Assembly (NCBI GenBank): GCA_024223715.1 | Contig: JAAEOA010000202.1 | Coordinates: forward strand, 6,779-70,778 | Source of the DNA: a bacterium | Lineage (GTDB): Bacteria; Krumholzibacteriota; Krumholzibacteriia; LZORAL124-64-63 | DNA length: 64,000 bases | Direction of reading: 5' to 3' | Part shown: positions 22,410 to 51,336 of the stretch, piece by piece | How the letters are laid out: each line of letters begins with the position of its first letter | Position numbering within the stretch: the first letter of the stretch is position 1 | The notes under the pieces: generated by a model | What the model was told of the DNA's origin: nothing | The model's database searches: none | The model's input: only the letters and a program-made list of their open reading frames with translations | Translations under genes and position numbers: made by a program

Positions 22410-22445
22410 GATTTCCCTCCGTGGGTCTTGGCAGAATTTGGAACT

Positions 22446-22473
22446 GGGGTCACCAGCAAATGCCGGTGACCCC
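22446..22473 (-). terminator. Terminator-like hairpin after the large C25 gene
   Basis: Perfect 9-bp stem ggggtcacc / ggtgacccc with a 10-nt loop. The trailing sequence is only weakly U-rich. Confidence 0.45.
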
Positions 22474-22499
22474 ATCGATCATTTTTCAGGAAATGAGAC

Positions 22500-27656: not shown

Positions 27657-28115
27657 AATGTCCTCCAATCCGGATGGAAACCTGGGAAACCAGAGAGTCG
27701 TGTCCGGCTTGAGTAAAATGTGAAGGAATTGAGCGAGTTCAACCCCGGCGTGAAGAAATGAATTTGATGCAACAAACTCCATTTCACCTTTAACTATAAT
27801 ATTATACCAGAAGTACACAGGGAAATGTTCAGGTTTATCTTCACATTTCCGCAACATTTAAGGTCTTTTGGAACCATAAAACATGTATCCATAATATATT
27901 ATCACGCAAAAGTTAATCTTTACCTCTGGATTCAACCTAGTTGTGTTTGGTATACTTATTATCAACTTTTGAGCGCGCAATTGCAATTTACCGGAAATTA
28001 CTCCGGATTGCTTTCTGAACCTCGTACGCCTCATTGAATCGCCCCTTGGAATTAGCGAGTCAACAGCTGGTTTCCGTACCGAAGGCGCGGGGTCTGAAAA
28101 TTGAAAGGATCGATC

Positions 28116-32700: not shown

Positions 32701-33565
32701 CGGCGCCTTCGTGGTGGAATGGAGCCGCTTGCCTCACTACAAACCGGAAATTCTGGGATTCCAGACTTTCCAGTTGGTCCTTTTGGACCCTGCTCAGCAT
32801 TCCACCGCCTCAGGTGATGGTGAAATGCTGTTCTACTACCGTCAGGTAAACAACAATGACCATTTGCGAATGTTTGCCACCGTGGGTATTGAATCCCCCG
32901 ATGGTACCGATGGATTGCAATTGAGTTACGGTAACATCAATGCCAACGGAATGGCTCCGTTGCAACCTGGACTGGCTGTTCGTGTGACTACGGAGTCACC
33001 TGTTCGAGTGCCTTTTGCAGTGCAGTCCATGAATGCAGTCAACAACGATGGACAGGTTTCAATTACCTGGCAAACCGCAGATGATCGTCCGGTTCTCGGA
33101 TGGCATTTGCATCGTATTTCCGATGGACAGCGCCAACAGTTGACCGATTCGCCCCTGCCCGGCGAAACCCGTCACTTCAACACCTTGATTCAGGATGATT
33201 CCGACGCCACTTACCAGTTGACTGCCCTTCACCCCTATGGAGTGACCAGTCAACCAGGCCAGACGGAAGTAACCAGCAGTAGCTCCCTGAAACTGGCCTT
33301 GTATCCGGCTCACCCCAACCCGGCTGTGGGATCGACCAGCATTGGCTTTTCCTTGCCGCAAAACACCCAGGCTCGCCTGAGAGTTTATGATGTGGCAGGT
33401 CGATTGGTGCGTACCTTGGTCGATGGCCAGGTAGGTTCTGGAGAAGGTATTAAAATCTGGGATGGTCGCGATGACCTGGGTGCCCAGGCTGCCGGTGGAA
33501 TTTATTTTTACCGCCTCGAAGCCGGCACCAAAACCCTGACCCGGAAAATGATTCTGGTTCGATAA
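29750..33565 (+). CDS. Secreted gingipain-like peptidase C25 family protein (1271 aa) with FlgD-Ig/T9SS-type C-terminal domain
   Basis: SYLVVYAPTFSNAVAPLVEWKTLKGFNVRTV, LLVADVDQIPTY...MIGRLPV, Cys motif MSFVCLNGDY. C-terminus AHPNPAVGSTSIGFSLP...LRVYDVAGRLVRTL...GIYFYRLE...TRKMILVR. ATGA overlap with the beta-helix gene. Confidence 0.8.
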   Translation: MMRTNNFARPNKTIFIVAALMAVTVGSVFCEELDIPADQQKAAKILSARISDGVSQLQISATGRNAENSQDEQDRSILVALPQGTTSYQVNVEGSSSIQATAPGGMMIMRGQPVIRVKTSGSSETPVNVSITHNGSWVQNRNQRLASTAMQSALGQTLPAAYSNAVNTGGSYLVVYAPTFSNAVAPLVEWKTLKGFNVRTVSTSVTGASTEGIKEYIQNAYDTWDSPPEYVLLVADVDQIPTYNFYSNPSDQPYVQLDGDDWIMDAMIGRLPVENENEAQTLINKIINYERHPEMAGDTWQTRSLMVAGVYASDTPGYTVDFCGEQLENIGFQNPIGVSSPPLPSLQGAMVVRNTINTGVGFVVYRGWAYGTAGWDPPTFTVNDIPALDTNNMTPIVMSFVCLNGDYTSSSACFGEVFVRQGSPDEPGKGAVAFIGNGEHWSHTRYNDAMAISIFERIEDENITDLGTLLNSGKMRFMDYFPNEINVGDGTGDDEECVEFYFHIYNLLGDPAMKFWRQLPEEIQVTHATSLAAGSNSLNVNVVSDDEAAAIEGARVGIVQNGVLLGSGITDGNGDVDILLTPVQEGSDVSITVSEAGVVPYEGSITTGTASIFLATTEVAVDDAVGNADGFVNPGETLALTATVQNYGSSASGAFTLSISEITGPAVAANDEAHFPGVAGGSSEVAPSALGLVVDTNAADGSVISLKMDALRTGEQHDYSTATFLVKAPAWEVVSFADVNGDAPQAGQTTNLALTVRNTGSVDALGGNVTLNLLTDGASLGTTTAVLPACAVGATVTTEAVLDLSVEATTGTNTNMTFDLQVSTTTGYETETTCAAVVGPVNVSAPVGPDNYGYFAYDSADFDYPDSRPTYTWQEISSEMGGSGTKLDFPIENEVVWMVVDLPFTFQYYGQDYTQIRVSDNGWVSFDTGSDYDFYNWSIPSQYGVEALVAPFWDNLNPVPPAPEEQNVNGIDPDGIYTFDDTDNGAFVVEWSRLPHYKPEILGFQTFQLVLLDPAQHSTASGDGEMLFYYRQVNNNDHLRMFATVGIESPDGTDGLQLSYGNINANGMAPLQPGLAVRVTTESPVRVPFAVQSMNAVNNDGQVSITWQTADDRPVLGWHLHRISDGQRQQLTDSPLPGETRHFNTLIQDDSDATYQLTALHPYGVTSQPGQTEVTSSSSLKLALYPAHPNPAVGSTSIGFSLPQNTQARLRVYDVAGRLVRTLVDGQVGSGEGIKIWDGRDDLGAQAAGGIYFYRLEAGTKTLTRKMILVR

Positions 33566-33579
33566 TTCACTGAGATGGA

Positions 33580-33606
33580 CCACCGGCAAATTAACCTTGC
33601 CGGTGG
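33580..33606 (+). terminator. Hairpin (terminator or attenuator-like) between the C25 gene and pgsB
   Basis: Perfect 10-bp stem ccaccggcaa / ttgccggtgg with a 7-nt loop. There is no clear U-tract. It overlaps the ORF-track TTG start of pgsB. Confidence 0.5.
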
Positions 33607-33651
33607 TTGGTCCTCACTCAGGTCTTAAGTGATCTATGGAAATGGTCTGAC

Positions 33652-34833
33652 GTGCAACTGGTGTTGCTCCTGCTGGTGATAATAACCGCCCTCGGTATGT
33701 GGGAAATGTTTCGGCATGCCTATCATCGCAGGAAAATCCCCATTCGAATTCATGTAAATGGCAGCCGCGGAAAATCATCCGTGGCCCGGCTTATTGCCGC
33801 TGGGTTGAAAGCCGGAGGCATTGCAGTGGTTGGCAAAACCACCGGCAGTGCAGCTGCAGTTATTAATACTGACGGCAGTGAAACTCCAGTGGTTCGCCGG
33901 GGCGCTCCTAACATTAAAGAACAGTTGGGAGTTTTTCGCCGGGCCGCCAGACAAAACCCGAAAGCTTTGGTTATTGAATGCATGGCCGTTCGTCCGGACC
34001 TGCAATCAGTTTGTGAGCACTCCATTGTTAAAGCCACCCACGGAGTTATCACAAATGTCAGGCCCGATCACCTGGAAGTTATGGGCCCCACCATGGATGA
34101 TGTGGCCGCCAGTTTAGCCGGCACCGTGCCCTCAGGAAGCCATTTGTTCACCGCTGAAGACCGGTACGACGGATTCCTTGCCAAACGAGCCAAAAGGTCT
34201 CGCAGCAAGTTCACGCTCAGCACGGCAGAAACAGTGTCTGAAAAGGAAATGGAAAATTTTTCTTACGAAGAGTTTCCTGAAAATGTGAGTTTGGCTTTGG
34301 ATGTTTGCCAATCTGTTGGCATTACCAGAGATGTTGCCCTGCATGGTATGTGGTCCGTCACGCCAGATGTTGGTGCCATGACCCGCTGGGTTTTTGACGA
34401 AAAAACGGACAACTCAGAAACTCAACGCATTGAATTTATTAATGGCTTTGCGGCCAACGATCCGGACAGCTATGTACGGGTTTGGAAACGTTTGGGTTTG
34501 AATGAAAATCCTGAAAATGTAATTCTGCTGATGAACATTCGTTCAGACCGCCAACGCCGCAGCAAAGATATGGCGCCGCTTTTTGGTAAGGAATTGTCCG
34601 CTGCGCATTATGTGCTTATTGGTGAAGAAACCGCCCTTTTTGCAGATATGATCCGTCGCGGTGGAGTTTCCGCCGATACCATTTACAACTACAGTCATCT
34701 TGAAGCAACCGAACTTTGGGACCGCCTTGTTGGATTGGGTAACGATGGTTGCCAGGTTGTTGGCGTGGGTAACATTGCGGGCATTGGCAACCGCCTTCTC
34801 GACCATTTGCGTCAGAAGGAGAAGGTTCAATGA
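33652..34833 (+). CDS. pgsB: Poly-gamma-glutamate synthase subunit PgsB/CapB (Mur-ligase family amide ligase)
   Basis: N-terminal TM helix followed by RKIPIRIHVNGSRGKSSVARL, which parallels Bacillus CapB ...LPVRVNINGIRGKSTVTRL. Followed by pgsC. The start is uncertain: GTG at 33652 is preferred, because the TTG at 33607 lies inside the hairpin. Confidence 0.8.
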   Translation: MQLVLLLLVIITALGMWEMFRHAYHRRKIPIRIHVNGSRGKSSVARLIAAGLKAGGIAVVGKTTGSAAAVINTDGSETPVVRRGAPNIKEQLGVFRRAARQNPKALVIECMAVRPDLQSVCEHSIVKATHGVITNVRPDHLEVMGPTMDDVAASLAGTVPSGSHLFTAEDRYDGFLAKRAKRSRSKFTLSTAETVSEKEMENFSYEEFPENVSLALDVCQSVGITRDVALHGMWSVTPDVGAMTRWVFDEKTDNSETQRIEFINGFAANDPDSYVRVWKRLGLNENPENVILLMNIRSDRQRRSKDMAPLFGKELSAAHYVLIGEETALFADMIRRGGVSADTIYNYSHLEATELWDRLVGLGNDGCQVVGVGNIAGIGNRLLDHLRQKEKVQ

Positions 34834-35303
34834 TTTACCAAAGCATAGGCCTGGGTCTGGTTGTCGCCCTTGTTTTTTCCGAAATTCTGGGATTGGCTGC
34901 CGGTGGTCTGGTTGTACCCGGTTACATTGCCTTGTATCTGGATCAGCCTTTGCGCATTCTGGGGACTATTCTGGCCTCGTTGGTTACTTATGGTTTCATT
35001 CGAATTCTGGGGCGCTTTATTTTGCTCTACGGTCGACGCACCATGGTTTTTAGTGTTCTTTCCGGCTTCCTCTTTGGTTACCTGACACGGTATATTCTCG
35101 TCTTCAACGATGTTCTTAATTTGGGCGTGGACACAAGCGTGATCCAGTCCATTGGCTACATTATTCCCGGGCTTATTGCCTACTGGATGATGCGCCAGGG
35201 CATTGTCGAAACCCTCTGCACCATGATCATGGCCTCGTTTATTGTACGACTGGCCCTGGTCACTGCCTACGGAGGTAAGCTCATTGAGCTGGCGATTGGA
35301 TAA
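34830..35303 (+). CDS. pgsC: Poly-gamma-glutamate synthase membrane subunit PgsC/CapC
   Basis: 157 aa, polytopic. MIYQSIGLGLVVALVFSEILGLAAGGLVVPGYIALYLDQP. ATGA overlap with pgsB. Confidence 0.8.
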   Translation: MIYQSIGLGLVVALVFSEILGLAAGGLVVPGYIALYLDQPLRILGTILASLVTYGFIRILGRFILLYGRRTMVFSVLSGFLFGYLTRYILVFNDVLNLGVDTSVIQSIGYIIPGLIAYWMMRQGIVETLCTMIMASFIVRLALVTAYGGKLIELAIG

Positions 35304-37299
35304 CCGGCGCAGATTCATTCTTATGTGCCTTGCAGTGGTAGCTTTGCTGATGCAAATGGTGCTGGACATGACTCGTACGCCTACTCAACAACGGGATTTC
35401 GATCTCAAACTGGATGCAGCCCAAAGAGCTGAAAAAGCTTTTGCCGCCGTGCGTCAATCCCGAGGGCTGGAAAATGCCAGCCTTGACCTGGTCAATGACC
35501 CCGCCGGCACCGGTTTGATTGGACCTGAAATTAGTCCCATCACCAACGCAACCGGGAATCTGGATGCCAAATTGACCAGCTTGAATCCCAATTTTGCAGC
35601 GGTTATCGTTCAGTATTTTCGTCAAGCGGGATTAAAACCAGGTGATCCCATAGCCGTGGCTGTCAGTGGTTCTTTTCCGGGAATGAATATCGCTGTTTTT
35701 GCTGCTGCTGAGGCAATGGATTTACGACCAGTTGTTATCACTTCCGTGGGTGCTTCAAACTGGGGTGCCAACAGTCCTGACTTTACCTGGTTGGACATGG
35801 AAACCCTCTTTTTTGATAAGGGTATTTTCCACACCCGCAGCCTCGCGGCCACTTTTGGTGGTGGCGACGATATGGGCCGTGGACTCAGCCCCCACGGCAG
35901 ACAGTTGGTCCAAGCAAGCATCGAACGCAATGATGTTCCATTCCTGGAATCGGATAACATCGAAAAAGCCATTGAAGGCCGCATGACTTTTTACGAAAAA
36001 GCGTCCCGGGGACGGCCTTATCGATTGTATGTGAATGTTGGTGGTGGTGTGGCCAGTTTGGGCAGCAGCCATAACAAGAGTCTGCTTCCGGCGGGAATCA
36101 ATTTTGACCTTGGTGCTCATAACTGGCCCCGTAAAGGTTCTCTCATCCTGTTTTCTGAAAAAGGTGTACCGGTGGTTCATTTGTTGCGCATCACCTCTCT
36201 GGCCCGGGAATATGGCCTTCCGGTTGCCCCGGATTTCCAACCTCAGCCCGGTGAAGGTGAAGTTTTTGTCAGAGACATGTACCGCTGGCCCCTGGCTGCT
36301 GGTTTCCTGGTCATTTATTGCCTGGCCTGTGTTCTCATACTGGCGCCTGAAATCAGAAGAGGATTGTTCGACAAATTAGGACGCCGGCCCGTGGCTTCTG
36401 TTATTTCTTTTATTGTTTTCGGTTTGATTTCCACCAGCCACTATTCAGCCCTTGCGGAAGTAAGCTGGCGTGGAATCGAGCCTCAATCCGCCTTGGGCGA
36501 TGTTTGTCTCGACAACGGGAATCAGCAATTCAATTACTTGTTATTGGATCCGGCAAAAGGAATGGAATACAAAGTCAACGGGCCAAGACGGGTCAAATTG
36601 ATTACCCGGTATATTAGTGGACCCGGTGATCCGGAACGCCAACGTTATAATGTTTCCCTACAGCTGGACGGCGAGGAAATACTAAAAAAAAGCTTCCGCA
36701 GCAAACCCATGGCCGGGGTCACTGTGTGTAACCAAGGTGCCGGAGTTTCAACTTTGCGCCGGGCCTACGTCGATATTCCCAAAGGCGCCCATATCTTATC
36801 CATTACCGCTCAGAGCCAAGGCAGCGGCGATGTTGTGGGAAGGGTTTTTAAAGCCAGCAAAAGGAAATCTACCGGTACGGTTCCGTTTTCACCCGAAGGT
36901 TATCTGGAATTGGCCACCCTGCAATTTGAAAGCGGCTCTCAAAGCACATATTATCGTTTTGAAGCCGGATCACCTCTGACCTTTTCGGTAACCGGGCCGA
37001 CCAAACTACAGGTACGCACCCGTCTTGATTTTGAAACCGGAATGCTCGGCAGCCAGAAATATGCTGTTGAAGTTTATTGCGATGGTGAACTGTATCGGGC
37101 TTTTCACTACGATGTGACCCGACTGGCCAATGCCTTTTATCCGACTCAGCTGGACCTTCTGCCTGGAGTTCGAAAGAAGCTCAGCATAAAGGTGCCGGCA
37201 GGAAAACATAGTTACGAAGTGCGATGCGTTCGTCCCGATAATTGTGGTATCGCCGCTCAAATACGCATTCCAAGGAAGGACTTGCAAGGAACCCAATGA
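35296..37299 (+). CDS. Fusion membrane protein. The N-terminal ~350 aa resemble the 'poly-gamma-glutamate system protein' that accompanies PgsBC in genomes lacking CapA. This is followed by two TM helices and a ~280-aa C-terminal domain of unknown function (two beta-sandwich-like repeats).
   Basis: The TTG at 35296 overlaps the pgsC end by 8 nt and gives MDNRRRFILMCLAVVALLMQMVL as an anchor; an alternative ATG is at 35323. TM helices WPLAAGFLVIYCLACVLILAP and VASVISFIVFGLISTSHY. The family call is from memory and was not computed. Confidence 0.55.
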   Translation: MDNRRRFILMCLAVVALLMQMVLDMTRTPTQQRDFDLKLDAAQRAEKAFAAVRQSRGLENASLDLVNDPAGTGLIGPEISPITNATGNLDAKLTSLNPNFAAVIVQYFRQAGLKPGDPIAVAVSGSFPGMNIAVFAAAEAMDLRPVVITSVGASNWGANSPDFTWLDMETLFFDKGIFHTRSLAATFGGGDDMGRGLSPHGRQLVQASIERNDVPFLESDNIEKAIEGRMTFYEKASRGRPYRLYVNVGGGVASLGSSHNKSLLPAGINFDLGAHNWPRKGSLILFSEKGVPVVHLLRITSLAREYGLPVAPDFQPQPGEGEVFVRDMYRWPLAAGFLVIYCLACVLILAPEIRRGLFDKLGRRPVASVISFIVFGLISTSHYSALAEVSWRGIEPQSALGDVCLDNGNQQFNYLLLDPAKGMEYKVNGPRRVKLITRYISGPGDPERQRYNVSLQLDGEEILKKSFRSKPMAGVTVCNQGAGVSTLRRAYVDIPKGAHILSITAQSQGSGDVVGRVFKASKRKSTGTVPFSPEGYLELATLQFESGSQSTYYRFEAGSPLTFSVTGPTKLQVRTRLDFETGMLGSQKYAVEVYCDGELYRAFHYDVTRLANAFYPTQLDLLPGVRKKLSIKVPAGKHSYEVRCVRPDNCGIAAQIRIPRKDLQGTQ

Positions 37300-38855
37300 A
37301 GATAACAATCGCCCCAAATCTCAACATCAGATCAACTCTTGCTGTGTTGATTTTCCTCTTTATTCCCACCTTGGGCTTTTCGGCGGCATTGACCGCCCTG
37401 CGGCCCTTGGGTCAGGTGGAAGAAGTAGCCATTGGCAAGAAGGAAAAAGTTTATCTGGTTGTTGGTGACAGTACAGTCAAGGTGCCCATTATTGGGCCCG
37501 GGCAAATTACTGGTTATGCCAGAGTTGCCATGCCTACGGAAGGGAGTGCTGCCATTGGCGGTACTCTGACCTTGGGTGGTCTTCCAGGCGCCCCTCAGAA
37601 GCTCCCTTTCCAGTTTAAGGCATCCCGGAGATCCTCCTGGTCAGACAGCAGACCTGGTGCACCGAGCGGAGGTCGAAAATTCATACTCGAAGTTCCCGAA
37701 GGTGAATTCAACCTTTCTTTAAATGGCTCAGCCACCAGCGGTGACCCTATTCTCGTTATTCTCTACTACGATGGCCCAGCCCAACCTGATTTGCCCGGTT
37801 TGGCTAAATCTGCACCTGTGGCAAAAACGCCAAAAAAGAAAAAGAAGAATTCCGTATCATGGCTGAGCAACGCCAGTCTTGATGTTATTTATAACAGCAA
37901 TATTCTGGGCAACAGTCCAGACTACGTCGACGAGTTTGAAAGTGGGTTTAATGCCTACAAGTTCAAACACGATACTACTGACGATATGGTTATTGCTCCG
38001 TCGTTTAATATTGAAGCCAGAGTCAAGTGGTTCTCCTTTGGACAAAGCCGCTTTAAATTTAGAGTCAAACACTGGATGTATGCCGTAAACCCAATCAAAA
38101 CCAATACTGATTTTGATTTTTACATTCGGCAACTCCTGGGTAAGAAAAGTAGTCTTGAGCTTTATTTGCACACTGCTCCGGCCCAGTACATTCGGGAGTT
38201 ATCAGACCGATCACCCTTTGATGATCCTGACTCTGATTTGGTTTACCACGAGTTTCGTTTCCAGCGCAACATCTGGAATTTGACCTGGCGGCAAAAACTG
38301 AATAATAAGTTGAGCTTCAAGTTGTTGTACGAAGAGAATTATCGTTATTACAATGAATGGTTCGTTGAGAACGATATTGAAGCTTGGGAAATCCGGGGGA
38401 ACATTACCTGGAAACTCAACCGTTCCATGACCTGGAACTTCGATTACAGCTATGAAGATGCCACAGCCCGGGCTATTGATACGGTCGGAGAATTGCCTGG
38501 CAATTCCGATGATTCAGATGGCTCGTATGCACGTGACCTCTACCGTATTGGTGTTGACCTCAAGCACAGTTCTTTCAAGAAATACGTGGACCGGATTGGC
38601 CTGAGCTTCCTGTTCATGGATTATTACTTTACCACCGACAAAACTCTGGCTGAAGATCCTTTCCATGCAGGAAGGCGCGATGTTTTCTACAAAGGAACCA
38701 TCGAAGTCAGGAAAAAAATTGCAAAACCTCTCACGTTAAAATTGGCCGTGCGGCGCACCGAGCGCGTTGTCTATTCCCCCTGGGAAGGCGACATCACCAC
38801 GGACAAAGACTTTTCCCAATGGCTGTTCTGGTTCAGTCTGAATTACCGCTTTTAA
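37296..38855 (+). CDS. Outer-membrane beta-barrel protein with an N-terminal periplasmic beta-sandwich-like domain and a lysine-rich linker
   Basis: ATGA overlap with the previous gene. Signal peptide MKITIAPNLNIRSTLAVLIFLFIPTLGFSA. Linker TPKKKKKNS. Alternating amphipathic strands across ~320 aa. C-terminal OMP signature FWFSLNYRF. Confidence 0.65.
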   Translation: MKITIAPNLNIRSTLAVLIFLFIPTLGFSAALTALRPLGQVEEVAIGKKEKVYLVVGDSTVKVPIIGPGQITGYARVAMPTEGSAAIGGTLTLGGLPGAPQKLPFQFKASRRSSWSDSRPGAPSGGRKFILEVPEGEFNLSLNGSATSGDPILVILYYDGPAQPDLPGLAKSAPVAKTPKKKKKNSVSWLSNASLDVIYNSNILGNSPDYVDEFESGFNAYKFKHDTTDDMVIAPSFNIEARVKWFSFGQSRFKFRVKHWMYAVNPIKTNTDFDFYIRQLLGKKSSLELYLHTAPAQYIRELSDRSPFDDPDSDLVYHEFRFQRNIWNLTWRQKLNNKLSFKLLYEENYRYYNEWFVENDIEAWEIRGNITWKLNRSMTWNFDYSYEDATARAIDTVGELPGNSDDSDGSYARDLYRIGVDLKHSSFKKYVDRIGLSFLFMDYYFTTDKTLAEDPFHAGRRDVFYKGTIEVRKKIAKPLTLKLAVRRTERVVYSPWEGDITTDKDFSQWLFWFSLNYRF

Positions 38856-38864
38856 GGAGTAACC

Positions 38865-41312
38865 ATGCGTTCGCGCCCTAATAACTTTAGCCTTCTGTTC
38901 TTTGCTTTGCTGATCTTGCTTGTTTGGGTTGGTTGTGCCCAACAGGATTTGTACGAACCACCGGGATCACCTTTTGAAGAGGTGGGACGGGTTCCTTTGC
39001 CCAGTGAAAACGAAGGCGTGGCCATAATTGGTCGTTATGCTTTTGTAGCTGGTGGTCAGGCAGGCCTGCACTCCATCGACTTCACCGACCCGCGCAATCC
39101 TGTTTTGCTGCAAACTCTGAATACTCTCAAATACAGTGAGAGCGTGGAAGTGGTTCGTTCCTTTGTTGACCATCAGCTCCAGGACATTGCTCTGGTTGTT
39201 GAAGGCACCGAAGGTATTACCAGCTACGATATTACTGACCCCGGAAACATGACCAGCTTTAACAGTGGCACCACTGCGGTCTTTGGAAATCGGGTATACG
39301 TAGATCAGCCAGAAGATCCAGATGAGCCTTTCGTAGCTTTCCTTGCTGAAAGCTGGAAAGGCGTTCGCATTTTTGAAAGCATTCCCGCCCAGCCCGGTAT
39401 TCTGGCCTATAATGGTGTTTTTGTAGGCACCCAGGGTTACGCCGAAGGCATTGAAGTGCGCAATGGTTATGCTTATGTGGCTGACGATGAAATGGGACTT
39501 GCCGTCCTGGACGTGCGCATTCTCGACCTCGATGCCGTTAGCCTCGTCAGTTGGGCCGATACTCCCGGCGAAGCCCTTGATGTGGTTCTCGAAGGTGATT
39601 ACGCTTACGTTGCCGATGGTAAAAAAGGCCTCGCAATTTTCCGTATCAATGAAGGCGATACTCCTGAACCAGTTGCCAATCTCGACCTGACCGGGGACTG
39701 CCAATCGGTGGCTGTTCGTGACGGTCTGGTGGCCTTGGCCGGCCGTTGGGGTGGAACCATTTTTGTTGATGTTTCCAATCCCTCCGATCCCATTTTCTTG
39801 GGACGCTCCCTTGGATATTCCATGGATCTGGCCATCAGCAGCGAAGGATTTATTCTTGTTGCCGATAAAGACAATGGCCTGATTGTTCTTCAAGGCCCCG
39901 GTGAATTTACTGACAACACTCCCCCTTCTCCCGTCAGAAGCCTGACGACCCAGAGTTTTGGCATTGGCGCTGTTCGCTTGAACTGGTTTGCCACCGGCGA
40001 CGATGGCATGATGGGGCAAGCCTCCAGTCTGGACATCAGATACTCTGAAACACCCATCGTTGATGAAGCCAGCTGGGATGCTGCCACCATTGTCACCGGT
40101 GTTCCATTGCCAGACCCGCCAGGAACAGAAATGAGCTTTGTCGTATCTGAGCTTAGCGATGGAGAAAAACACTTTGCCATACGCTTCTCTGATGAAGTCG
40201 GCCACATATCTTCTCTCAGTAACCCTGTTTCCGGAATTCCGGGAGAAGGCATCCTGCTTCTCGATGGCAGCCTTGATATTCAGGGCGGAACCACCGAAGA
40301 CACTTACACTTACGGTGTGACATATATTTTTGATGAAGCCCCAACGGTTCATCAGGTGGTTATTGACGGCACTGCTTTCGAAATGTCCGTTGCGGAAACC
40401 AAGATTGATGAAATTGCCTACACTTATCAGACTCAGTTGCCCGCTGGTTCTCACACCTATTCCTTCAATTTCGAAGTTGCCGACCCTGAGGTTCCTCCGG
40501 CAACAACGGAAGAGACCACCGGCCCTCTTATTGGCAGTCTGGTTTTCACCATGGGCAGTTCAGACACTGAAAACACTCTGGACCCAAATTACGAACCAGG
40601 ACGCCAGACTGACGAATGGCAACACACTGTCGTTCTTTCCAATACAATCGAATCATTGGTCAGCGAAGTGACTCAAGCTCAGTGGACATCACTCGGATTC
40701 GTCAATCCCAGCTCCTTTTCTGGTGCCAATCGTCCGGTGGAATCAGTAACCTGGTTGCAAGCAGTTCAGTACTGCAACGCTCTTTCTGCTGATGATGGCC
40801 TCACCAGTGCCTACGACATTGCCGGTGAAACCGTAACCTGGGATCAGGAAGCCGATGGCTGGCGTTTGCCTACCGAAGCTGAATGGGAATGGCTGTGCCG
40901 TTCAGGTAGCACCACCACCTTCGCCGGCGGCCCATTGACCGGCAGAGTTTGCAATGTGGACCCGGTCCTGGATGCCATGGGTTGGTATTGCGGTAGCACT
41001 TTTGCCGACGATCCTTCCACCAGTGATGTCTCTCAAAAAACCGCCAACAGTGCCGGCTTGTATGATATGCACGGCAATGTCTGGGAATGGTGCTGGGATT
41101 GGTACGGTGACTACCGTGTGGCCGACGAAGACGGCGACGGTGTCGTTCTTGACCCCACTGGTGCACACAGTGGAACTCAACGAGTTGTCCGCGGTGGAAG
41201 CTGGTACGGTGGCAGTGAAGATTGCCGCAGTGCCAACCGAGAATCCCGTTTCACCGATTCAGCAGATGATGTTGTGGGCCTGCGCGTGGTCCGAACCATC
41301 TTCAGCAAATAG
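38865..41312 (+). CDS. Lipoprotein: LVIVD-repeat beta-propeller + FN3/Ig-like modules + C-terminal FGE-sulfatase (SUMF1/GldK/EgtB-type) domain
   Basis: AAGGAG SD. Lipobox LLVWVGC. Repeats YAFVAGGQAGLHSIDF, YAYVADDEMGLAVLDV, YAYVADGKKGLAIFRI, ILVADKDNGLIVLQG. FGE-fold motifs RPVESVTWLQAVQYCNALS, GWRLPTEAEWEW, LYDMHGNVWEWCWDWY, RVVRGGSWYG. Confidence 0.7.
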   Translation: MRSRPNNFSLLFFALLILLVWVGCAQQDLYEPPGSPFEEVGRVPLPSENEGVAIIGRYAFVAGGQAGLHSIDFTDPRNPVLLQTLNTLKYSESVEVVRSFVDHQLQDIALVVEGTEGITSYDITDPGNMTSFNSGTTAVFGNRVYVDQPEDPDEPFVAFLAESWKGVRIFESIPAQPGILAYNGVFVGTQGYAEGIEVRNGYAYVADDEMGLAVLDVRILDLDAVSLVSWADTPGEALDVVLEGDYAYVADGKKGLAIFRINEGDTPEPVANLDLTGDCQSVAVRDGLVALAGRWGGTIFVDVSNPSDPIFLGRSLGYSMDLAISSEGFILVADKDNGLIVLQGPGEFTDNTPPSPVRSLTTQSFGIGAVRLNWFATGDDGMMGQASSLDIRYSETPIVDEASWDAATIVTGVPLPDPPGTEMSFVVSELSDGEKHFAIRFSDEVGHISSLSNPVSGIPGEGILLLDGSLDIQGGTTEDTYTYGVTYIFDEAPTVHQVVIDGTAFEMSVAETKIDEIAYTYQTQLPAGSHTYSFNFEVADPEVPPATTEETTGPLIGSLVFTMGSSDTENTLDPNYEPGRQTDEWQHTVVLSNTIESLVSEVTQAQWTSLGFVNPSSFSGANRPVESVTWLQAVQYCNALSADDGLTSAYDIAGETVTWDQEADGWRLPTEAEWEWLCRSGSTTTFAGGPLTGRVCNVDPVLDAMGWYCGSTFADDPSTSDVSQKTANSAGLYDMHGNVWEWCWDWYGDYRVADEDGDGVVLDPTGAHSGTQRVVRGGSWYGGSEDCRSANRESRFTDSADDVVGLRVVRTIFSK

Positions 41313-41319
41313 GAAAGTC

Positions 41320-42414
41320 ATGGCTGAAAAAAAACGTTTCACATTCATTGACGAATTCCGGGGCCTCATCGGTGTGATGATGGCCCTGGGGCACAGCAAT
41401 TATTATTTCAATTCGGCATGGTTAACGTTAGATCCCCTGGATCCGTTTTTCAGCAACTTACCTCAGTTCCTTCTGAGGTACATGGGATACCTGTGCGCCC
41501 CTGGTTTTCTAATGATGAATGGGGCCATGATTTATTATGTTTTTCATCGTCGTATGAAAAACGGCGAAGGATTGGGTTCCATTCGTTGGGGATTCATCCA
41601 ACGGGGCCTTTTCCTCATTGCGGTTCAATTGGTTTGGGTGAATGCTTCTTGGGGTGGATTCAGCAGACTGCGGTTGGGCCATTTTGGCATCATTGCCACT
41701 ATTGGCACCAGCATGTTACTGCTGATTTGGATTGTAACCTGGAAATGGCAATGGCGGGCTCTAACGGCGGCTGTTCTTTTCATAGTTCATCCATTCCTTC
41801 TGAAAATTCCTTACGACATGGATGGGCCTGCCCACTATGTCATGCAGTTTTTCGTAGATTCCGGCCATTTCAACAAATACCCTGTTTTGCCATGGTTCGC
41901 TCTGGCGATAGTGGGTAGTGTGATGGCCCATTTCTGGTTTGAAGGCTGGAAGGACCCAGACATACGGGCTCGAAATTCTGTCTTAACCGGATTAAGCCTA
42001 ATTGCCTTAGCCTATGTGGTTCGTTTCGGACACGGTTTTGGAAACATTTTTGCCTGGGATACTTTCTTCAGTTACTCCTTCTTTCTGGTGCAGAAATATC
42101 CACCCAGCCTGGCTCACCAACTCTGGTTATCAGGAACGGTAATCTCATTGGTCGGCGCATTCAGTTACATTGATCAAAGAAGTCCAATCTTGCGCCCCTT
42201 GGCCAACGTGGGCCGAGTTCCGTTGTTTTTCTATGCAGTTCACATTCCCCTGCTATCAATTTTTTCCCGCAGGTTTGGTTTCTTCTATCACGAAGGAGCC
42301 GTTATGGAATCGCTCATTGGCTGGGTTGTCCTTTTGGCTGTTATGTACCCGCTGGCACTGTGGTTTGGTGGGGTTAAAAAACGATCCAGGGCCTGGATTA
42401 TTCGCATGATCTAG
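41320..42414 (+). CDS. Polytopic membrane acyltransferase-like protein (DUF1624 / heparan-alpha-glucosaminide N-acetyltransferase-like)
   Basis: AGGAAA SD. N-terminal KKRFTFIDEFRGLIGVMMALGH motif followed by about 9-10 hydrophobic helices. The ORF-track start at 40954 lies inside the previous gene. Confidence 0.55.
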   Translation: MAEKKRFTFIDEFRGLIGVMMALGHSNYYFNSAWLTLDPLDPFFSNLPQFLLRYMGYLCAPGFLMMNGAMIYYVFHRRMKNGEGLGSIRWGFIQRGLFLIAVQLVWVNASWGGFSRLRLGHFGIIATIGTSMLLLIWIVTWKWQWRALTAAVLFIVHPFLLKIPYDMDGPAHYVMQFFVDSGHFNKYPVLPWFALAIVGSVMAHFWFEGWKDPDIRARNSVLTGLSLIALAYVVRFGHGFGNIFAWDTFFSYSFFLVQKYPPSLAHQLWLSGTVISLVGAFSYIDQRSPILRPLANVGRVPLFFYAVHIPLLSIFSRRFGFFYHEGAVMESLIGWVVLLAVMYPLALWFGGVKKRSRAWIIRMI

Positions 42415-42528: not shown

Positions 42529-43314
42529 TCAGACTTGTTTATTCAATCCAGCCAAAAAGACCGCACCCCGTAAAGTCCATGCCGGATCAACAATGCGATC
42601 GTCCAGAGGCAATAATGAACTGAGCCCGCCAGTCAGAATAACAGGCAAATCGCCATAAGACTCTTTTAGTTTATTTAGGGTCCATTCAATGGAACCCCAG
42701 CCAGCCAACCAGGCTCCGTTTTTCATGGCCTCCTCTGTGTGGCGACCCACAGTTGAAGGCGTTTTTCCAAAAGAAAACGTTTCCAGCATAGCTCCTTTGG
42801 CTCCCATTTGGCGGGAACTGAATTCCATGCCCGGTGAAATGAGGCCCCCTTTAAAAACGCCATCGAGTAAAAGGTCAAAAGTAGTCGCTGTGCCTGCATC
42901 AACAACAACGGCCGAAGTCAGGCCAATACCCAAAGCAGCAGCGATGTTGCAGACCCGGTCCGGTCCCATTGTTTCCTGATGAATGATTTCATGATCACAA
43001 GGCAATTCAGAGACCTGCCCCACAACCAAAATATCCGGCCATAAGTTACGAATAATTTCAGTGACGGAAGGAACTACCGAAATCAGGATTTTTTCAGATG
43101 AAGGTGGCGCATCCAATCGGGAAATTTGGTCGATAAAATTTCCAGTATCAGAAGATACATTTGCAGTGGGAATACTTCCCAGTGGTTGAAACTCAAGGTC
43201 ATTTAAAAGGAATTCAGATCCCTTCGGACCGAACTTGCAATAAGCGGCTTCCTGTTTTAAAGCAGATATCTTGACCTGTGAATTTCCCGCATCGATGACA
43301 ATCCTGGAAGCCAT
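42529..43314 (-). CDS. coaX: Type III pantothenate kinase
   Basis: IVIDAGNSQVKIS, VVVDAGTATTFD, ILTGGLSSLL. Confidence 0.85.
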   Translation of the reverse strand: MASRIVIDAGNSQVKISALKQEAAYCKFGPKGSEFLLNDLEFQPLGSIPTANVSSDTGNFIDQISRLDAPPSSEKILISVVPSVTEIIRNLWPDILVVGQVSELPCDHEIIHQETMGPDRVCNIAAALGIGLTSAVVVDAGTATTFDLLLDGVFKGGLISPGMEFSSRQMGAKGAMLETFSFGKTPSTVGRHTEEAMKNGAWLAGWGSIEWTLNKLKESYGDLPVILTGGLSSLLPLDDRIVDPAWTLRGAVFLAGLNKQV

Positions 43315-44216
43315 CAGTCTTCACCTTCTTCAACAGGCAGGAGGTGCACATCGCCTGCATGAATGATAGTAGATTGACCCTGATCATCTTCCATAAGCAA
43401 AGCCCCTTCAGGACCTATGCCCATGGATCTCCCCTCAAAAAATGAGTTCCCCGAGCGAATTCTTACTCTTTTACCCAGAAGGCAATCCAAAGCCGAGAGC
43501 GACGATTGCCATGCCAGCCATCCTTCCCTGGCGAATCGATCAAATTCGTCTTCCACACGCCTGACAATGCAACCGGCAATTGATCCAAGTTTGTGTTTTT
43601 GCCCGGTTTCCAGAAAAATGCTGGTCGCTGTGTTTCTTAATTCGGTTGGGAATGACTTTTTATCAGTGAGAATATTCAGGCCCAGCCCGGCAATCAAATG
43701 CCCAGAGGTGCCTGTCTGTTCCATCAAAAGACCACCCAATTTACATCTTCCAACCATAATATCATTGGGCCATTTTAATCGGGCATCGAGGTTAAATTCT
43801 TCACGTAGGGCCAGGACGACCATCAAACCGAGCCAAACGGAAAAACCTTTTTGAGCAGAAGCGGGGTGATCTGGTATCACCACCGAAAGGTGCAGTCCCC
43901 CACAATCAATCCACTGGCGGCCCTGGCGGCCTTTGCCAGCACTTTGGTGACGGGAAACAACAACAGTCCCCCTTTGAAGATTGGCCACCGGATCGAGGTA
44001 ACCAAGATCAGAAGCTTTCCATCCCCAATCCTGCCATTGGCAAATACGACCTTCAGCGGCAGGGCCTCTTCCTAACAGGAATTCATTGGTACTGGGAACA
44101 TTTTCCAGGAGAAACAGCTGGGCACCAGTCCTGCGAAATCGTACTCCGGACTCAAAAACATCGAGTCCGAACCAATCTCGGTGAACCGAATTGTTTTTCC
44201 GATTGTCGTGCATCAT
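43314..44216 (-). CDS. birA: Biotin--[acetyl-CoA-carboxylase] ligase (no N-terminal HTH recognisable)
   Basis: VVVSRHQSAGKGRQGRQW biotin-binding loop and KWPNDIMVG. 1-nt overlap with coaX and ATGA overlap with nadC. Confidence 0.85.
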   Translation of the reverse strand: MMHDNRKNNSVHRDWFGLDVFESGVRFRRTGAQLFLLENVPSTNEFLLGRGPAAEGRICQWQDWGWKASDLGYLDPVANLQRGTVVVSRHQSAGKGRQGRQWIDCGGLHLSVVIPDHPASAQKGFSVWLGLMVVLALREEFNLDARLKWPNDIMVGRCKLGGLLMEQTGTSGHLIAGLGLNILTDKKSFPTELRNTATSIFLETGQKHKLGSIAGCIVRRVEDEFDRFAREGWLAWQSSLSALDCLLGKRVRIRSGNSFFEGRSMGIGPEGALLMEDDQGQSTIIHAGDVHLLPVEEGED

Positions 44217-45070
44217 GAATTCATGTCCAATCCCAGATCCAAGGCTTGAATGGAGTGTGTCAGTCGTCCCACAGAAGCAGCATCAACACCCGCCTGAGAA
44301 TACCCGCCAATTGTTTCCAGAGTCACGTTTCCGGAACTTTCCAGCATACTGTTTGACTGGGCTTCGTTTCGTAACTGCACCGCCTGCTGAGTCTCGGAAA
44401 AAGAAAAATTATCCAACATTATCCATTCCACATTCAACTTTAATACCTGGTTTAATTGATCAATCGTATCGACTTCCACTTCAATCGCCAGTTTGGGATA
44501 TTGCTGACGACCTGCAGCAACAAGATCCGCCACACGGTTACCGGCTGCAGCCCAGTGATTGTCCTTGAGCATGATTCGGTCGTACAAGCCCATTCGATGG
44601 TTGTGTCCCCCTCCGCAACGCACTGCATATTTGGCCAGATGCCTGTAGCCTGGAAGAGTTTTCCGTGTATCGAGAACTTTACAGTGTGTGCCTTTTACCT
44701 GGGCGACATAAAGAGAAGTCAGAGAAGCAATTCCACTCAGGTTTTGCATAAAATTCAATAGAATTCTCTCGCCCGTCAAAATGGATGCTGCCGGACCTTC
44801 CAACACAGCCACAACATCGCCAACTTGAACAGGTGTTCCATCCGGTGCAATGGTCTCGATGTTGACTTGAGTATTCATCTGTTCAAAAAGAATATCCAAC
44901 AGTGGTAAGCCTGCCACAACCCCAGGTTCGCGAGCGGAAATTTCAGCCCTAATGACCTGGCCGTCATTGACGGTAATGCTCGTGGTAGCATCGCCGGATC
45001 CTAAATCTTCCATTAGGCTCATGCGTATCAGTTGTTCCGTATAGTCATCCGCTGGAAATTGCAAATCCAT
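44213..45070 (-). CDS. nadC: Nicotinate-nucleotide diphosphorylase (carboxylating), i.e. quinolinate phosphoribosyltransferase
   Basis: ERILLNFMQNLSGIAS, VLDTRKTLPGYR, GGGHNHRMGLYDRIMLKDNH, IMLDNF. Confidence 0.85.
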   Translation of the reverse strand: MDLQFPADDYTEQLIRMSLMEDLGSGDATTSITVNDGQVIRAEISAREPGVVAGLPLLDILFEQMNTQVNIETIAPDGTPVQVGDVVAVLEGPAASILTGERILLNFMQNLSGIASLTSLYVAQVKGTHCKVLDTRKTLPGYRHLAKYAVRCGGGHNHRMGLYDRIMLKDNHWAAAGNRVADLVAAGRQQYPKLAIEVEVDTIDQLNQVLKLNVEWIMLDNFSFSETQQAVQLRNEAQSNSMLESSGNVTLETIGGYSQAGVDAASVGRLTHSIQALDLGLDMNS

Positions 45071-45092
45071 TGTACTCTCTTTTTCTGACGAC

Positions 45093-47102: not shown

Positions 47103-47105
47103 GCT

Positions 47106-48197: not shown

Positions 48198-48211
48198 GAG
48201 ATCCTTCCTAA

Positions 48212-50968: not shown

Positions 50969-51336
50969 TTGCCTGATTTCTTCCAAAACGTCACTCCCAT
51001 TTTTTACTGGCACAAAAAATATCTGCCAGGTACTACAGAATATCACTCAAACCTTAAATTCGAGCCAAAATATTATTCGACTTGCAAGTTAACACTTAGA
51101 TTGAAACTGGGCAACGGGTTTGCACAATCCAGATCAAGTAAAATAATCTCAAGACTACAAGACCGATTTTTCAATTTTACAATCAATTGTACAAAACGAC
51201 CAAAAAAAACCATGTTTTTTTACAGATATTACAAAAAAAAAGCTTTTCAAGCCTGTAAAGGTCCTGTACGTTCCAAAAGACAAGCCAACGTTCTCGCCCA
51301 AAACAACTCAAGAAATTGACATGAGGGGATTCCAAA

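Follow-up and report, generated by a model that had tools for sequence, protein, structure and literature searches.

Poly-gamma-glutamate (PGA) synthesis is familiar from the PgsBCA(E)/CapBCADE systems of Bacillus, which is monoderm. Gram-negative producers have been described as well. Fusobacterium nucleatum is cited as a proven one (PMC4928254, through its ref. 3), and a preprint on Cloacimonadota gives CapB–CapC–PgsF as the typical organization of Gram-negative PGA producers (10.1101/2025.11.11.687785). Francisella has capBC together with a protein annotated as a member of family TIGR04332, for which the NCBI name is ‘poly-gamma-glutamate system protein’ (PMC5362203).

If PGA is made by cells with two membranes, how does it leave them? 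An earlier, sequence-only reading of the DNA analysed here held that, to its knowledge, no such trans-envelope PGA route had been described for Gram-negative-type cells. As regards the outer membrane this stands; we found no published account in the literature of an outer-membrane PGA route or of the cluster described below. As regards PGA production itself it does not, given the citation of F. nucleatum as a producer (PMC4928254, ref. 3). We propose the cluster as the first concrete candidate for the exit of PGA from two-membrane cells.

The locus and its synthase genes

The window, the whole 64,000-nucleotide stretch of DNA that was analysed, comes from a member of the Krumholzibacteriota. 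Six closely packed open reading frames occupy its + strand from 33652 to 42414, all six with the ends first assigned to them. Both of the reported ATGA overlaps are present: that of pgsB and pgsC at 34830–34833, with GAAGGAGAAGG just 5' of it, and that of genes 3 and 4 at 37296–37299. So are the gaps of 9 nt between genes 4 and 5 (GGAGTAACC) and of 7 nt between genes 5 and 6 (TAGGAAAGTCATG). The 8-nt overlap reported for genes 2 and 3 is uncertain. It requires a TTG start at 35296, while the public gene call for the identical gene 3 protein (P0093), at 658 aa, implies an ATG at 35323 and hence a 19-nt gap. The start of gene 1 is ambiguous too (GTG 33652 or TTG 33607); in the version that starts at 33652, residue 3 is the first to match TIGR04012. 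Between the coupled genes there is no spare reading-frame space, for example for CapD or for the small peptide PgsE/CapE.

What bounds the block? Upstream, between a C25-like gene and pgsB, lies a + strand stem-loop (33578–33608) with a 12-bp core and a folding energy of –29.2 kcal/mol (z = –5.4); none of 200 shuffles folds equally well. The stem-loop lacks a U-tract and was not called in a terminator scan. GC-rich hairpins, unrelated in sequence, stand at the equivalent position in many related loci. The hairpin had been taken as the upstream boundary. It is real and strong, but it is not a functional boundary, since two genes for cargo of type IX secretion (T9SS) that lie further upstream are conserved partners of the cluster. 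Downstream, convergent coaX was correctly recognized (42529–43314, – strand, Pan_kinase match). The surroundings are housekeeping genes and the GC content is uniform; the locus is thus not an island.

Gene 1 (33652–34833, + strand, alternative start 33607) encodes PgsB/CapB, a membrane-anchored gamma-glutamyl ligase of the Mur-ligase family (393 aa; TIGR04012, Mur_ligase_M). It matches TIGR04012 at equivalog level (421.6 bits, cut-off 222.7, model positions 2–380 of 380), and pgsC adjoins it. Gene 2 (34830–35303, + strand) encodes PgsC/CapC, a small polytopic membrane subunit of 157 aa with multiple hydrophobic segments, at 119.5 bits against TIGR04011 (cut-off 96.45) and 113 bits against PF14102 (CapC; cut-off 27). 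The features on which these two genes had first been named, the transmembrane helix (residues 1–19) and Mur-ligase P-loop HVNGSRGKSS of gene 1 and the CapC domain of gene 2, are all there, and the profile searches place both proteins above the curated equivalog cut-offs. The reported lack of a CapA-type protein is likewise correct: a Pfam search found no CapA/PGA_cap domain (PF09587) in any of the six proteins. Among the related loci its one appearance was in a distant locus, on a T9SS-tailed protein.

The N-terminal part of gene 3 (35296–36375, + strand) is the TIGR04332 ‘poly-gamma-glutamate system protein’ (324.6 bits, cut-off 100, residues 9–313). In the AlphaFold2 model, a periplasmic alpha/beta domain (28–328) stands between two transmembrane helices (2–25 and 331–349). 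About 300 further residues follow the match, in keeping with the first description of a PGA-system-like membrane protein with an extra domain. To judge from its profile match, gene 3 belongs to an annotated family already known, which here occupies the position of CapA, and the third component is not new. TIGR04332 adjoins pgsC in the window and in 74 of 74 related loci (best 80 of 281 genome matches).

The C-terminal part (36376–37299, + strand) begins with a relic signal peptide (...HYSALA/EV) and continues, after residues of low confidence (361–388), into two predicted periplasmic beta-sandwiches of the jelly-roll type (389–522 and 528–659). The two match one another (hhalign probability 98%, E 2e-13), and Foldseek pairs them with CBM51, CBM22, PNGase F and BcsB, the last a periplasmic subunit that guides cellulose. 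TIGR04332 and the jelly-rolls form one gene or two, TIGR04332 being a separate gene in many relatives, where the stand-alone jelly-roll proteins have classical AxA signal peptides. The jelly-roll part occurs in 77 of 77 loci (best 80 of 281).

Barrel, lipoprotein, acyltransferase and T9SS cargo

Is the product of gene 4 (37296–38855, + strand) a membrane barrel, as first supposed? AlphaFold2 predicts one with confidence (pLDDT 89.7): behind a signal peptide, seen as a hydrophobic N-terminus, come a periplasmic jelly-roll domain (about residues 30–165), a Lys-rich linker and a 14-strand beta-barrel (187–519). The best Foldseek matches of the barrel in the PDB are porin-type (OmpG, CymA, FadL, PgaA and BcsC), the C-terminal end ...FWFSLNYRF, with its final aromatic residue, is present, and some homologues match PF13505. 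In outer-membrane proteins generally, an even number of strands leaves the N-terminal domain in the periplasm; this domain should therefore be periplasmic. It is related to the gene 3 jelly-rolls (hhalign probability 96%, E 2e-9 and 9e-9), and the homology suggests a periplasmic bridge. A Pfam search found no TPR domain in the six proteins; gene 4 has the jelly-roll N-domain in its place.

Gene 5 (38865–41312, + strand) encodes a lipoprotein of 815 aa with an LVIVD beta-propeller (PF08309, 90.5 bits), a middle domain and, at the C-terminus, an FGE-sulfatase/C-type-lectin-like domain (PF03781, 111.9 bits, residues 594–810). The lipobox (...VWVGC) and both named domains bear out its first description. 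Of solved structures, the non-enzymatic TvpA (2y3c, 9e-25) and PorK (about 1e-12) come nearest to the FGE domain, both ahead of true FGEs. Read from the translation alone, its motif is GGSWYGGSEDCRSANR, with a single Cys. We also considered gene 5 as the T9SS ring lipoprotein PorK/GldK. At 67.5 bits against GldK TIGR03525, over the C-terminal 190 residues only, it falls below the equivalog cut-off of 350, and we rejected this assignment.

Gene 6 (41320–42414, + strand) encodes a polytopic membrane acyltransferase of 364 aa with several hydrophobic segments. Its earlier label, DUF1624-like, agrees with the match to PF07786 (HGSNAT_cat; 53.9 bits, cut-off 22). No solved structural relative of it was found.

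Upstream of the hairpin, three genes encode proteins with the Por_Secre_tail of T9SS cargo. Nearest to pgsB is a gingipain-like protein of 1271 aa (29750–33565, + strand; Peptidase_C25, 193 bits). Aligned with RgpB (1cvr), it has Trp368 opposite the catalytic His211 and Cys402 opposite Cys244. The His of the catalytic dyad is thus missing, as it is from all 52 pgs-adjoining orthologues (W in 44, E in 7, Q in 1), in which the Cys is invariant. A C25 catalytic domain lies inside the locus in 41 of 43 cases (best 80 of 281), its gene shifting position and strand but still linked. The preceding gene (28101–29753, + strand) overlaps it by 4 nt and encodes a right-handed beta-helix protein of 550 aa with a T9SS C-terminal sorting domain (Pfam: Beta_helix, NosD, FlgD_ig, Por_Secre_tail). 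It recurs in 27 of the 38 related loci with enough flanking DNA (best 80 of 281), and also in loci L001 and L002. We conclude that these two genes (28101–33565) are conserved partners of the pgs cluster. The third, divergent gene (22500–27857, – strand; Pfam: Peptidase_C25, Propeptide_C25, FlgD_ig, Por_Secre_tail) encodes a gingipain-like protein of 1785 aa with YRGY at the catalytic-His position. An opposite-strand C25 gene has the equivalent position in most Krumholzibacteriota-type loci (best 80 of 281), and the protein is possibly a peripheral partner of the cluster.

Conservation of the cluster

Do these genes belong together elsewhere? Our survey covers 80 species-level loci from several FCB-group phyla, the best 80 of 281 genome matches; the denominators below vary with the module. 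The genes downstream of pgsBC are its conserved neighbours, as the first reading had anticipated. In this set (best 80 of 281) the barrel follows pgsBC in 72 of 74 loci and the propeller is nearly universal (63 of 68), while the FGE domain is found in 44 of 62 and the acyltransferase in 45 of 57; the last varies in position and strand, and its linkage to the cluster persists. Taken module by module, the order PgsB–PgsC–TIGR04332–jelly-rolls–barrel is held in 68/68, 74/74, 77/77 and 72/74 loci (best 80 of 281). Krumholzibacteriota, Ignavibacteria, Bacteroidales, Eisenbacteria, TA06 and LCP-89 share it. A reverse search that started from barrels found them directly 3' of pgs genes in 34 of 36 metagenome loci and in 6 of 6 protein look-ups, and in 34 of the 36 metagenome loci a jelly-roll gene is directly 5' of the barrel. 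Barrels of only 22–33% identity keep the same position. A minimal form of five genes has the barrel but neither lipoprotein nor C25 protein.

The unit is accordingly not exactly the six genes of the sequence-only reading. The conserved core consists of five modules (PgsB, PgsC, TIGR04332, the jelly-rolls arranged in tandem in the periplasm, and the barrel); the presence of the accessory FGE domain and acyltransferase varies from lineage to lineage. Family membership, predicted folds, periplasmic targeting signals and conserved linkage are established directly.

A candidate export route and its relation to known systems

From these observations we infer the functional steps, the bridge and the product, and with them the export, modification and anchoring of a polymer by the cluster. 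On balance we think it probable that this chromosomal cluster, conserved in FCB-group phyla, makes PGA at the inner membrane and passes it through a dedicated outer-membrane pore. For PgsB, PgsC, TIGR04332 and the acyltransferase, the proposed roles follow what is established of their families. In the inner membrane, PgsB and PgsC would together make up the translocase and the ATP-dependent gamma-glutamyl ligase. The TIGR04332 protein would substitute for Bacillus PgsA/CapA, its alpha/beta domain facing the periplasm. Two CBM-like jelly-rolls, fused to it here and separately secreted in many relatives, would lie in the periplasm, and the outer-membrane protein would contribute the third, homologous one as its periplasmic N-domain. 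Together, the TIGR04332 and jelly-roll modules would take the nascent polyanion and pass it to the 14-strand barrel, the putative exit pore. The propeller/lectin-like lipoprotein may be an outer-membrane-attached scaffold or a polymer-binding partner. The HGSNAT-type acyltransferase may use cytoplasmic acyl-CoA to modify the polymer periplasmically. The sole free amine of gamma-PGA is its N-terminus, there being no hydroxyl or internal amine; capping of that N-terminus is therefore the most plausible modification. Finally, the T9SS would bring the His-less gingipain-like and beta-helix proteins to the surface, where the polymer could be bound, tethered or trimmed.

Export of this kind is supported by the equivalog-level matches of PgsB, PgsC and TIGR04332, by the porins and exopolysaccharide porins among the structural neighbours of the barrel, by the signal peptides, CBM-like folds and shared ancestry of the jelly-rolls, by the fusion and fission of gene 3, and by the conserved linkage in a setting that is not an island. 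Several observations count against it. The barrel has 14 strands, against 16–18 in known polymer-exporting barrels, and the charged residues conserved in it are of both signs (about 15 basic, about 18 acidic). A TPR scaffold is missing, as is any obvious energy coupling; the acyltransferase would find neither a hydroxyl nor an internal amine on gamma-PGA; and between one quarter and one third of loci are without the FGE domain and acyltransferase (best 80 of 281). Francisella has capBC with a TIGR04332-annotated protein, and we know of no PGA capsule demonstrated there.

Might the four downstream genes be chance neighbours of pgsBC in one genome? No Pfam or NCBIfam family ties genes 4–6 to PGA, but the two-way linkage across phyla outlasts rearrangement, fusion and fission of genes and divergence to about 25% identity. 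Chance is extremely improbable, and we reject it on the conserved linkage in the genome loci (best 80 of 281) and in 34 of 36 metagenome barrel loci. PGA may instead be made here while barrel, lipoprotein and jelly-rolls serve as capsule anchors, as sensors or in the uptake of PGA or glutamate, the polymer leaving elsewhere or staying in the periplasm. The structural neighbours of the barrel are mostly 14-strand uptake channels (OmpG, CymA, FadL), CBM-like folds are binding modules, the FGE-like domain is nearest to the ligand-binding, non-catalytic TvpA and PorK, and the conserved C25-like partner, without its catalytic His, resembles a binding protein. On the other hand, the barrel stands strictly right after the synthase genes, as in synthase-dependent secretion operons, and the translationally coupled junctions and the domain common to inner-membrane-side and outer-membrane proteins fit such operons likewise. 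No other conserved outer-membrane component occurs in the loci surveyed (best 80 of 281 genomes; 36 metagenome loci), and the minimal five-gene form retains the barrel while it drops the lipoprotein and the C25 protein. We judge anchoring, sensing or uptake rather unlikely.

We consider it distinctly unlikely that the PgsBC-type ligase makes no free homopolymer of high molecular weight but gamma-glutamylates an envelope acceptor (lipid, peptidoglycan or T9SS cargo), or builds a mixed or short polyamide on it, with the acyltransferase and C25-like proteins as co-builders of the conjugate. The persistent linkage of T9SS cargo (41 of 43; best 80 of 281), an HGSNAT-type acyltransferase without an obvious substrate in plain PGA, a T9SS-tailed CapA-domain protein in one related locus and a third component unlike Bacillus PgsA would all suit a conjugate. 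Yet PgsB and PgsC score far over equivalog cut-offs trained on PGA synthases, many loci do without the accessory genes while the five-gene core is constant, and the C25-like domain lacks the His required for sortase- or transpeptidase-type chemistry.

How does the proposed export machine compare with known systems? With Bacillus it shares equivalog PgsB and PgsC, the order B, C and then a third subunit that is anchored in the membrane and has an extracytoplasmic domain, and a secreted peptidase-family gene next to the operon, which in B. subtilis is pgdS. It differs in its third subunit (TIGR04332 here, the PF09587 PgsA/CapA domain in Bacillus), in its outer membrane and in four to six extra conserved genes (jelly-rolls, barrel, propeller lipoprotein, acyltransferase, T9SS cargo). 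The CapB–CapC–‘PgsF’/TIGR04332 loci of F. nucleatum, Cloacimonadota and Francisella (capBCA) have the same three inner-membrane components, PgsF being putatively TIGR04332. By their descriptions they consist of three genes with no outer-membrane component named, to which jelly-roll protein, barrel and lipoprotein are added here. The T9SS lipoproteins PorK/GldK offer a parallel for gene 5, an FGE-sulfatase-fold lipoprotein in an FCB-group bacterium with PorK among its closest solved relatives; unlike PorK, gene 5 has an N-terminal LVIVD propeller, and it belongs to a pgs locus, not to a por/gld operon.

The plan of the synthase-dependent exopolysaccharide systems (BcsA/B/C for cellulose, Alg8/44/K/E for alginate, PgaABCD for PNAG) is similar: an inner-membrane polymerase-translocase, a CBM-like periplasmic handler, a dedicated outer-membrane barrel, an outer-membrane lipoprotein and a membrane acyltransferase. 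Fold matches lead to the same systems, BcsB for the jelly-rolls and PgaA and BcsC for the barrel, while Pfam and NCBIfam searches with the six proteins detected no sequence homology to them. The product here would be a polyamide of a Mur-ligase-type enzyme, not that of a glycosyltransferase, and the porins AlgE, PgaA and BcsC have 16–18 strands and a periplasmic TPR scaffold, against 14 strands and no TPR domain in the six proteins. We tentatively suggest, at somewhat less than even confidence, a new class: an envelope-spanning polyamide-capsule secretion machine of the FCB group, with a repeated jelly-roll bridge on the inner- and outer-membrane sides and a 14-strand exit barrel with its propeller lipoprotein, coupled to the T9SS through catalytically disabled gingipain-like proteins that tether or organize polyglutamate. 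If true, this would place a new class of capsule export beside the polysaccharide routes of the Wzx/Wzy, ABC and synthase-dependent types.

The synthase genes and their chromosomal setting

All six forward-strand open reading frames ascribed to the candidate operon (genes 1–6: 33652–34833, 34830–35303, 35296–37299, 37296–38855, 38865–41312 and 41320–42414) are present in the window. Do they encode a poly-gamma-glutamate (γ-PGA) synthase, as the sequence-only reading had it? The product of gene 1 belongs to the PgsB family (TIGR04012, 421.6 bits against a cut-off of 222.7) and that of gene 2 to the PgsC family (TIGR04011, 119.5 against 96.45; PF14102, 113 bits). Residues 9–313 of gene 3 correspond to the ‘poly-gamma-glutamate system protein’ (TIGR04332, 324.6 against 100). 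A search of the PDB with the gene 3 sequence profile returned zero matches and a PHROGs search was likewise empty; the Foldseek list for this protein consists mostly of jelly-roll matches and gives no fold to the TIGR04332 α/β domain. The CapA-type protein reported as missing is indeed absent from the six, none of which matches PF09587. A related locus from a Bacteroidetes MAG (L084, GCA_019637975.1) encodes, at 15078–18074, a 998-aa protein bearing both a CapA/PGA_cap domain (PF09587) and a type IX secretion (T9SS) sorting tail, just downstream of its pgs–barrel–LVIVD–C25 block. Some lineages may thus send a CapA-like domain to the cell surface.

On reading the junctions we found the ATGA overlaps of pgsB with pgsC (34830–34833) and of gene 3 with gene 4 (37296–37299), a 9-nt gap with GGAG before gene 5, and a 7-nt gap before gene 6, where AGGA overlaps the stop codon. 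The 8-nt overlap claimed for genes 2 and 3 holds only with a TTG start at 35296; an identical public protein (P0093) of 658 aa implies an ATG start at 35323 instead, which leaves this junction in doubt. Gene 1 likewise has two possible starts (GTG at 33652 or TTG at 33607).

The convergent coaX, encoding a type III pantothenate kinase, marks the downstream edge as proposed. The region has an even GC content and the flanking genes are of the housekeeping kind (GroEL, ValRS, UvrB, a sigma-70 factor, pantoate ligase, biotin ligase); the block is thus part of the chromosomal core, not an island. The reverse-strand run at 42529–51046 (coaX, biotin ligase, nadC-like, uvrB, HTH_25, valS) is syntenic with the DNA downstream of the pgs cluster in L001, a Krumholzibacteria-like locus, which supports a stable chromosomal location of the cluster as well as the taxonomic placement. 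The closest locus, L003, has 76% identity in gene 3 and the same gene order, coaX included; by its likeness to this locus the window's organism is probably a member of the Krumholzibacteriota. Promoter and terminator scans gave hits at chance level, FCB-type promoters lying outside the coverage of the scan.

Predicted architecture of the envelope proteins

Is the product of gene 4 a membrane barrel? It has no match in Pfam, NCBIfam or PHROGs, and public records name it ‘hypothetical protein’. An AlphaFold2 model made from 48 homologues (mean pLDDT 89.7) predicts a signal-peptide helix, a β-sandwich at about residues 30–165 and, at residues 187–519, 14 long antiparallel strands, in agreement with the barrel claimed earlier. 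Foldseek against the PDB returned outer-membrane barrels exclusively, the 14-strand channels OmpG and CymA on top and, lower in the list, FadL, the PNAG exporter PgaA (4y25) and the cellulose exporter BcsC (6tzk). The C-terminus reads ...NYRF. Ahead of the first barrel strand lies a lysine-rich linker (37818–37853, residues ~175–186, ...AKTPKKKKKNS), which was considered as a polyanion-binding site. Among 139 homologues the linker has a median of 5 K/R per 26 residues, where 3.3 would be expected; in 57% of them at least 4 K/R fall within 10 residues, and in a few there is an acidic stretch instead. We set the linker aside as evidence, the enrichment being modest and some homologues lacking it.

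The AlphaFold2 model of gene 3 (pLDDT 86.4) comprises a transmembrane helix (residues 2–25), an α/β domain (28–328), a second transmembrane helix (331–349), a hydrophobic stretch of low confidence (361–388, ending ...HYSALA|EV) and two β-sandwich domains (389–522 and 528–659). What is the hydrophobic stretch? Gene 3 is represented by two genes in many relatives, as in L001 (7977–9991; 368 and 303 aa), and the downstream gene of such split pairs starts with a classical signal peptide and AxA site. By this comparison the internal stretch of gene 3, ...SVISFIVFGLISTSHYSALA|EV, looks like a retained (relic) signal peptide, possibly still cleavable, and the jelly-rolls that follow it would be periplasmic.

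The two jelly-rolls of gene 3 are homologous to one another (profile–profile, 98%, E 2e-13), and the N-domain of the barrel is homologous to both (96.2%, E 2e-9; 95.7%, E 9e-9). The latter relationship is seen only by profile–profile comparison, a direct BLASTP between the C-domain of gene 3 and the N-domain of the barrel giving nothing significant (E 0.65). A β-barrel with an even number of strands has both its termini in the periplasm; with the even number predicted here, all three jelly-roll copies would face that compartment. Foldseek neighbours of the jelly-roll fold include CBM51, CBM22, PNGase F and the periplasmic cellulose-synthase subunit BcsB, a likeness that we weigh lightly, as generic to the fold.

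Gene 5 encodes the propeller/FGE-fold lipoprotein that had been described (LVIVD 90.5 bits, FGE-sulfatase 111.9 bits, lipobox ...VWVGC). The nearest solved relatives of its FGE domain are the ligand-binding Treponema TvpA (9e-25) and the T9SS protein PorK (about 1e-12), with true formylglycine-generating enzymes ranking behind both. The protein is not itself assigned as PorK/GldK, scoring 67.5 bits against an equivalog cut-off of 350. TvpA, the best PDB match, is a target of diversity-generating retroelements, and such an element was therefore considered here. It is rejected: the whole window holds zero direct repeats of at least 40 nt that might serve as template, and hence no sign of such an element. 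The product of gene 6, earlier noted as a DUF1624-like membrane acyltransferase, is one by PF07786 (HGSNAT_cat, 53.9 against 22); it has no solved relative.

Conservation of the cluster and its upstream partners

How widely do these genes travel together? A homologue search of a 5.8-billion-protein collection detected 92 barrels and 423 gene 3 proteins, many of the two kinds on contigs of the same size. With each GTDB species represented by one genome, a gene 3 profile matched 281 species, and in the best 80 of these 281 loci open reading frames were called and searched with the window proteins and family HMMs. By record title the 80 include Krumholzibacteriota, Latescibacterota, Eisenbacteria, Ignavibacteria, Bacteroidales/Lentimicrobiaceae, TA06 and LCP-89; several ENA records that bear the label ‘Fibrobacteraceae’ are probably members of these clades too. 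Among the loci whose flanking DNA reached far enough for a count, PgsB was found in 68/68, PgsC in 74/74, the jelly-roll protein in 77/77, the barrel in 72/74 (its N-domain in 32/74), the LVIVD propeller in 63/68, the FGE domain in 44/62 and the acyltransferase in 45/57. Of the downstream genes, all previously put forward as partners of pgsBC, the barrel and propeller are thus conserved neighbours, the FGE domain and acyltransferase accessories. The minimal form is of five genes, PgsB–PgsC–TIGR04332–jelly-roll–barrel.

Six of six barrel homologues looked up singly lie directly after PgsB–PgsC–TIGR04332–jelly-roll, four of them being only 23–26% identical to barrels of the window's clade or belonging to the LCP-89 clade; a seventh, on a truncated contig, still has the propeller/FGE lipoprotein and acyltransferase downstream. 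A barrel-anchored metagenome scan placed the jelly-roll gene immediately upstream in 34 of the 36 loci with upstream DNA, and the other two (L122, L126) have the acyltransferase there, on the opposite strand. The order is permuted in L048, L056 and L072, some of them labelled Eisenbacteria, to C25–barrel–LVIVD/FGE–acyltransferase–PgsB–PgsC–gene 3. The acyltransferase switches end and strand between loci and remains linked.

The hairpin that was to bound the block upstream exists (33578–33608, −29.2 kcal/mol, z = −5.4, with 0/200 shuffles as stable); it has no U-tract and the terminator scan did not flag it. As a functional limit of the block it does not stand. Upstream of it two genes that overlap by 4 nt encode a right-handed β-helix protein and a 1271-aa Peptidase_C25 protein (29750–33565, forward strand), both with type IX secretion C-terminal domains, and the pair occupies the same position in L001 and L002. 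Among related loci with enough flank the C25 catalytic domain stays linked in 41/43 and the β-helix gene in 27/38. In many Krumholzibacteriota-type loci (L005, L015, L016, L019–L025) a GC-rich hairpin is again found between pgsB and the stop codon of the C25-like gene, its sequence unrelated to that in the window; the recurrence suggests a conserved regulatory or mRNA-stabilising element, not a functional operon boundary.

What role might be played by the C25-like partner? Aligned with gingipain R (1cvr), it keeps the catalytic Cys (Cys402), with the catalytic His211 replaced by Trp368. In 52 orthologues adjoining pgs loci the Cys is invariant and the place of the His is taken by W in 44, by E in 7 and by Q in 1. 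These partners are therefore not canonical proteases, which weakens the case for an active protease or sortase analogous to CapD/PgdS; a surface binding or tethering role seems more plausible than hydrolysis. A second C25 T9SS cargo (22500–27857, reverse strand) also lacks the canonical His (motif YRGY) and keeps the Cys. Downstream of this large gene lie two reverse-strand open reading frames without Pfam match (20943–21803, 286 aa; 21825–22475, 216 aa).

A putative export route and known systems

If the synthase is a familiar one, what do the other proteins do? The linkage is kept through divergence, rearrangement and fusion/fission, strong comparative evidence that the cluster is one functional unit with a core and accessories; a chance neighbourhood is thereby refuted. 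We consider that this unit probably pairs a PGA synthase with its own module for export across the outer membrane. The same envelope proteins might instead retain, sense or re-import the polymer, which we hold to be unlikely, and it is rather improbable that the ligase makes a conjugate or a non-canonical polyamide on an envelope acceptor.

In Bacillus PgsBCA, the membrane-located, ATP-dependent ligase consists of PgsB and PgsC, and the third subunit assists in removing the chain and translocating it (PMC4928254). In the export reading, the TIGR04332 protein would stand in place of that subunit and the nascent polyanion would enter the periplasm, where the tandem jelly-rolls would handle the chain and pass it to their homologue at the barrel's N-terminus or, where a lineage has a barrel with no such N-domain, straight to the barrel. 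The chain would leave via the 14-strand pore, with the propeller lipoprotein as an outer-membrane partner. Enzymes of the HGSNAT family N-acetylate an amine across a membrane with cytoplasmic acetyl-CoA as donor. The single free amine of γ-PGA is at the N-terminus, and this end should be the first to emerge if the chain grows at its C-terminus; our best guess is therefore that the accessory acyltransferase caps the N-terminus of the polymer.

To our knowledge no route of γ-PGA across an outer membrane has been described. The cluster supplies named candidates for every missing export step, whose conservation extends, within the 281 species-level genome matches, to several FCB-group phyla at least; its five-gene minimal version could be cloned. 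A connection of PGA capsules with type IX secretion is also hinted at, and the cluster could aid both the engineering of PGA production in Gram-negative hosts and the understanding of surface biology in bacteria that are abundant, though uncultured, in sediment, sludge and digesters.

How does it compare with known systems? Bioinformatic cataloguing has placed capBC-type systems in many diderm phyla, and published PGA capsule models contain CapB/C (with A/E) only and no outer-membrane component (PMC5542703). Gram-negative PGA production is known, PMC4928254 citing F. nucleatum, and in Francisella the annotation of ‘capA’ reads poly-gamma-glutamate system protein (PMC5362203). Our search of the open-access and bioRxiv literature for an outer-membrane PGA route, TIGR04332, PgsF, and PGA in Krumholzibacteriota or with T9SS found the cluster undescribed, an indication and not proof; the jelly-roll protein, barrel, propeller lipoprotein and T9SS link had no description within the same scope. 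The synthase is known; the trans-envelope module is new. Papers on Cloacimonadota give a three-gene CapB–CapC–PgsF operon as typical of Gram-negative producers (10.1101/2025.11.11.687785; see also PMC8542988), and published accounts of Gram-negative loci go no further than three genes (10.1101/2025.11.11.687785). The cluster described here has a putative outer-membrane module besides. The synthase-dependent secretion of exopolysaccharides (BcsA/B/C, Alg, Pga) follows a parallel logic with no sequence homology to the cluster, a logic that would here be carried over from polysaccharides to a polyamide.
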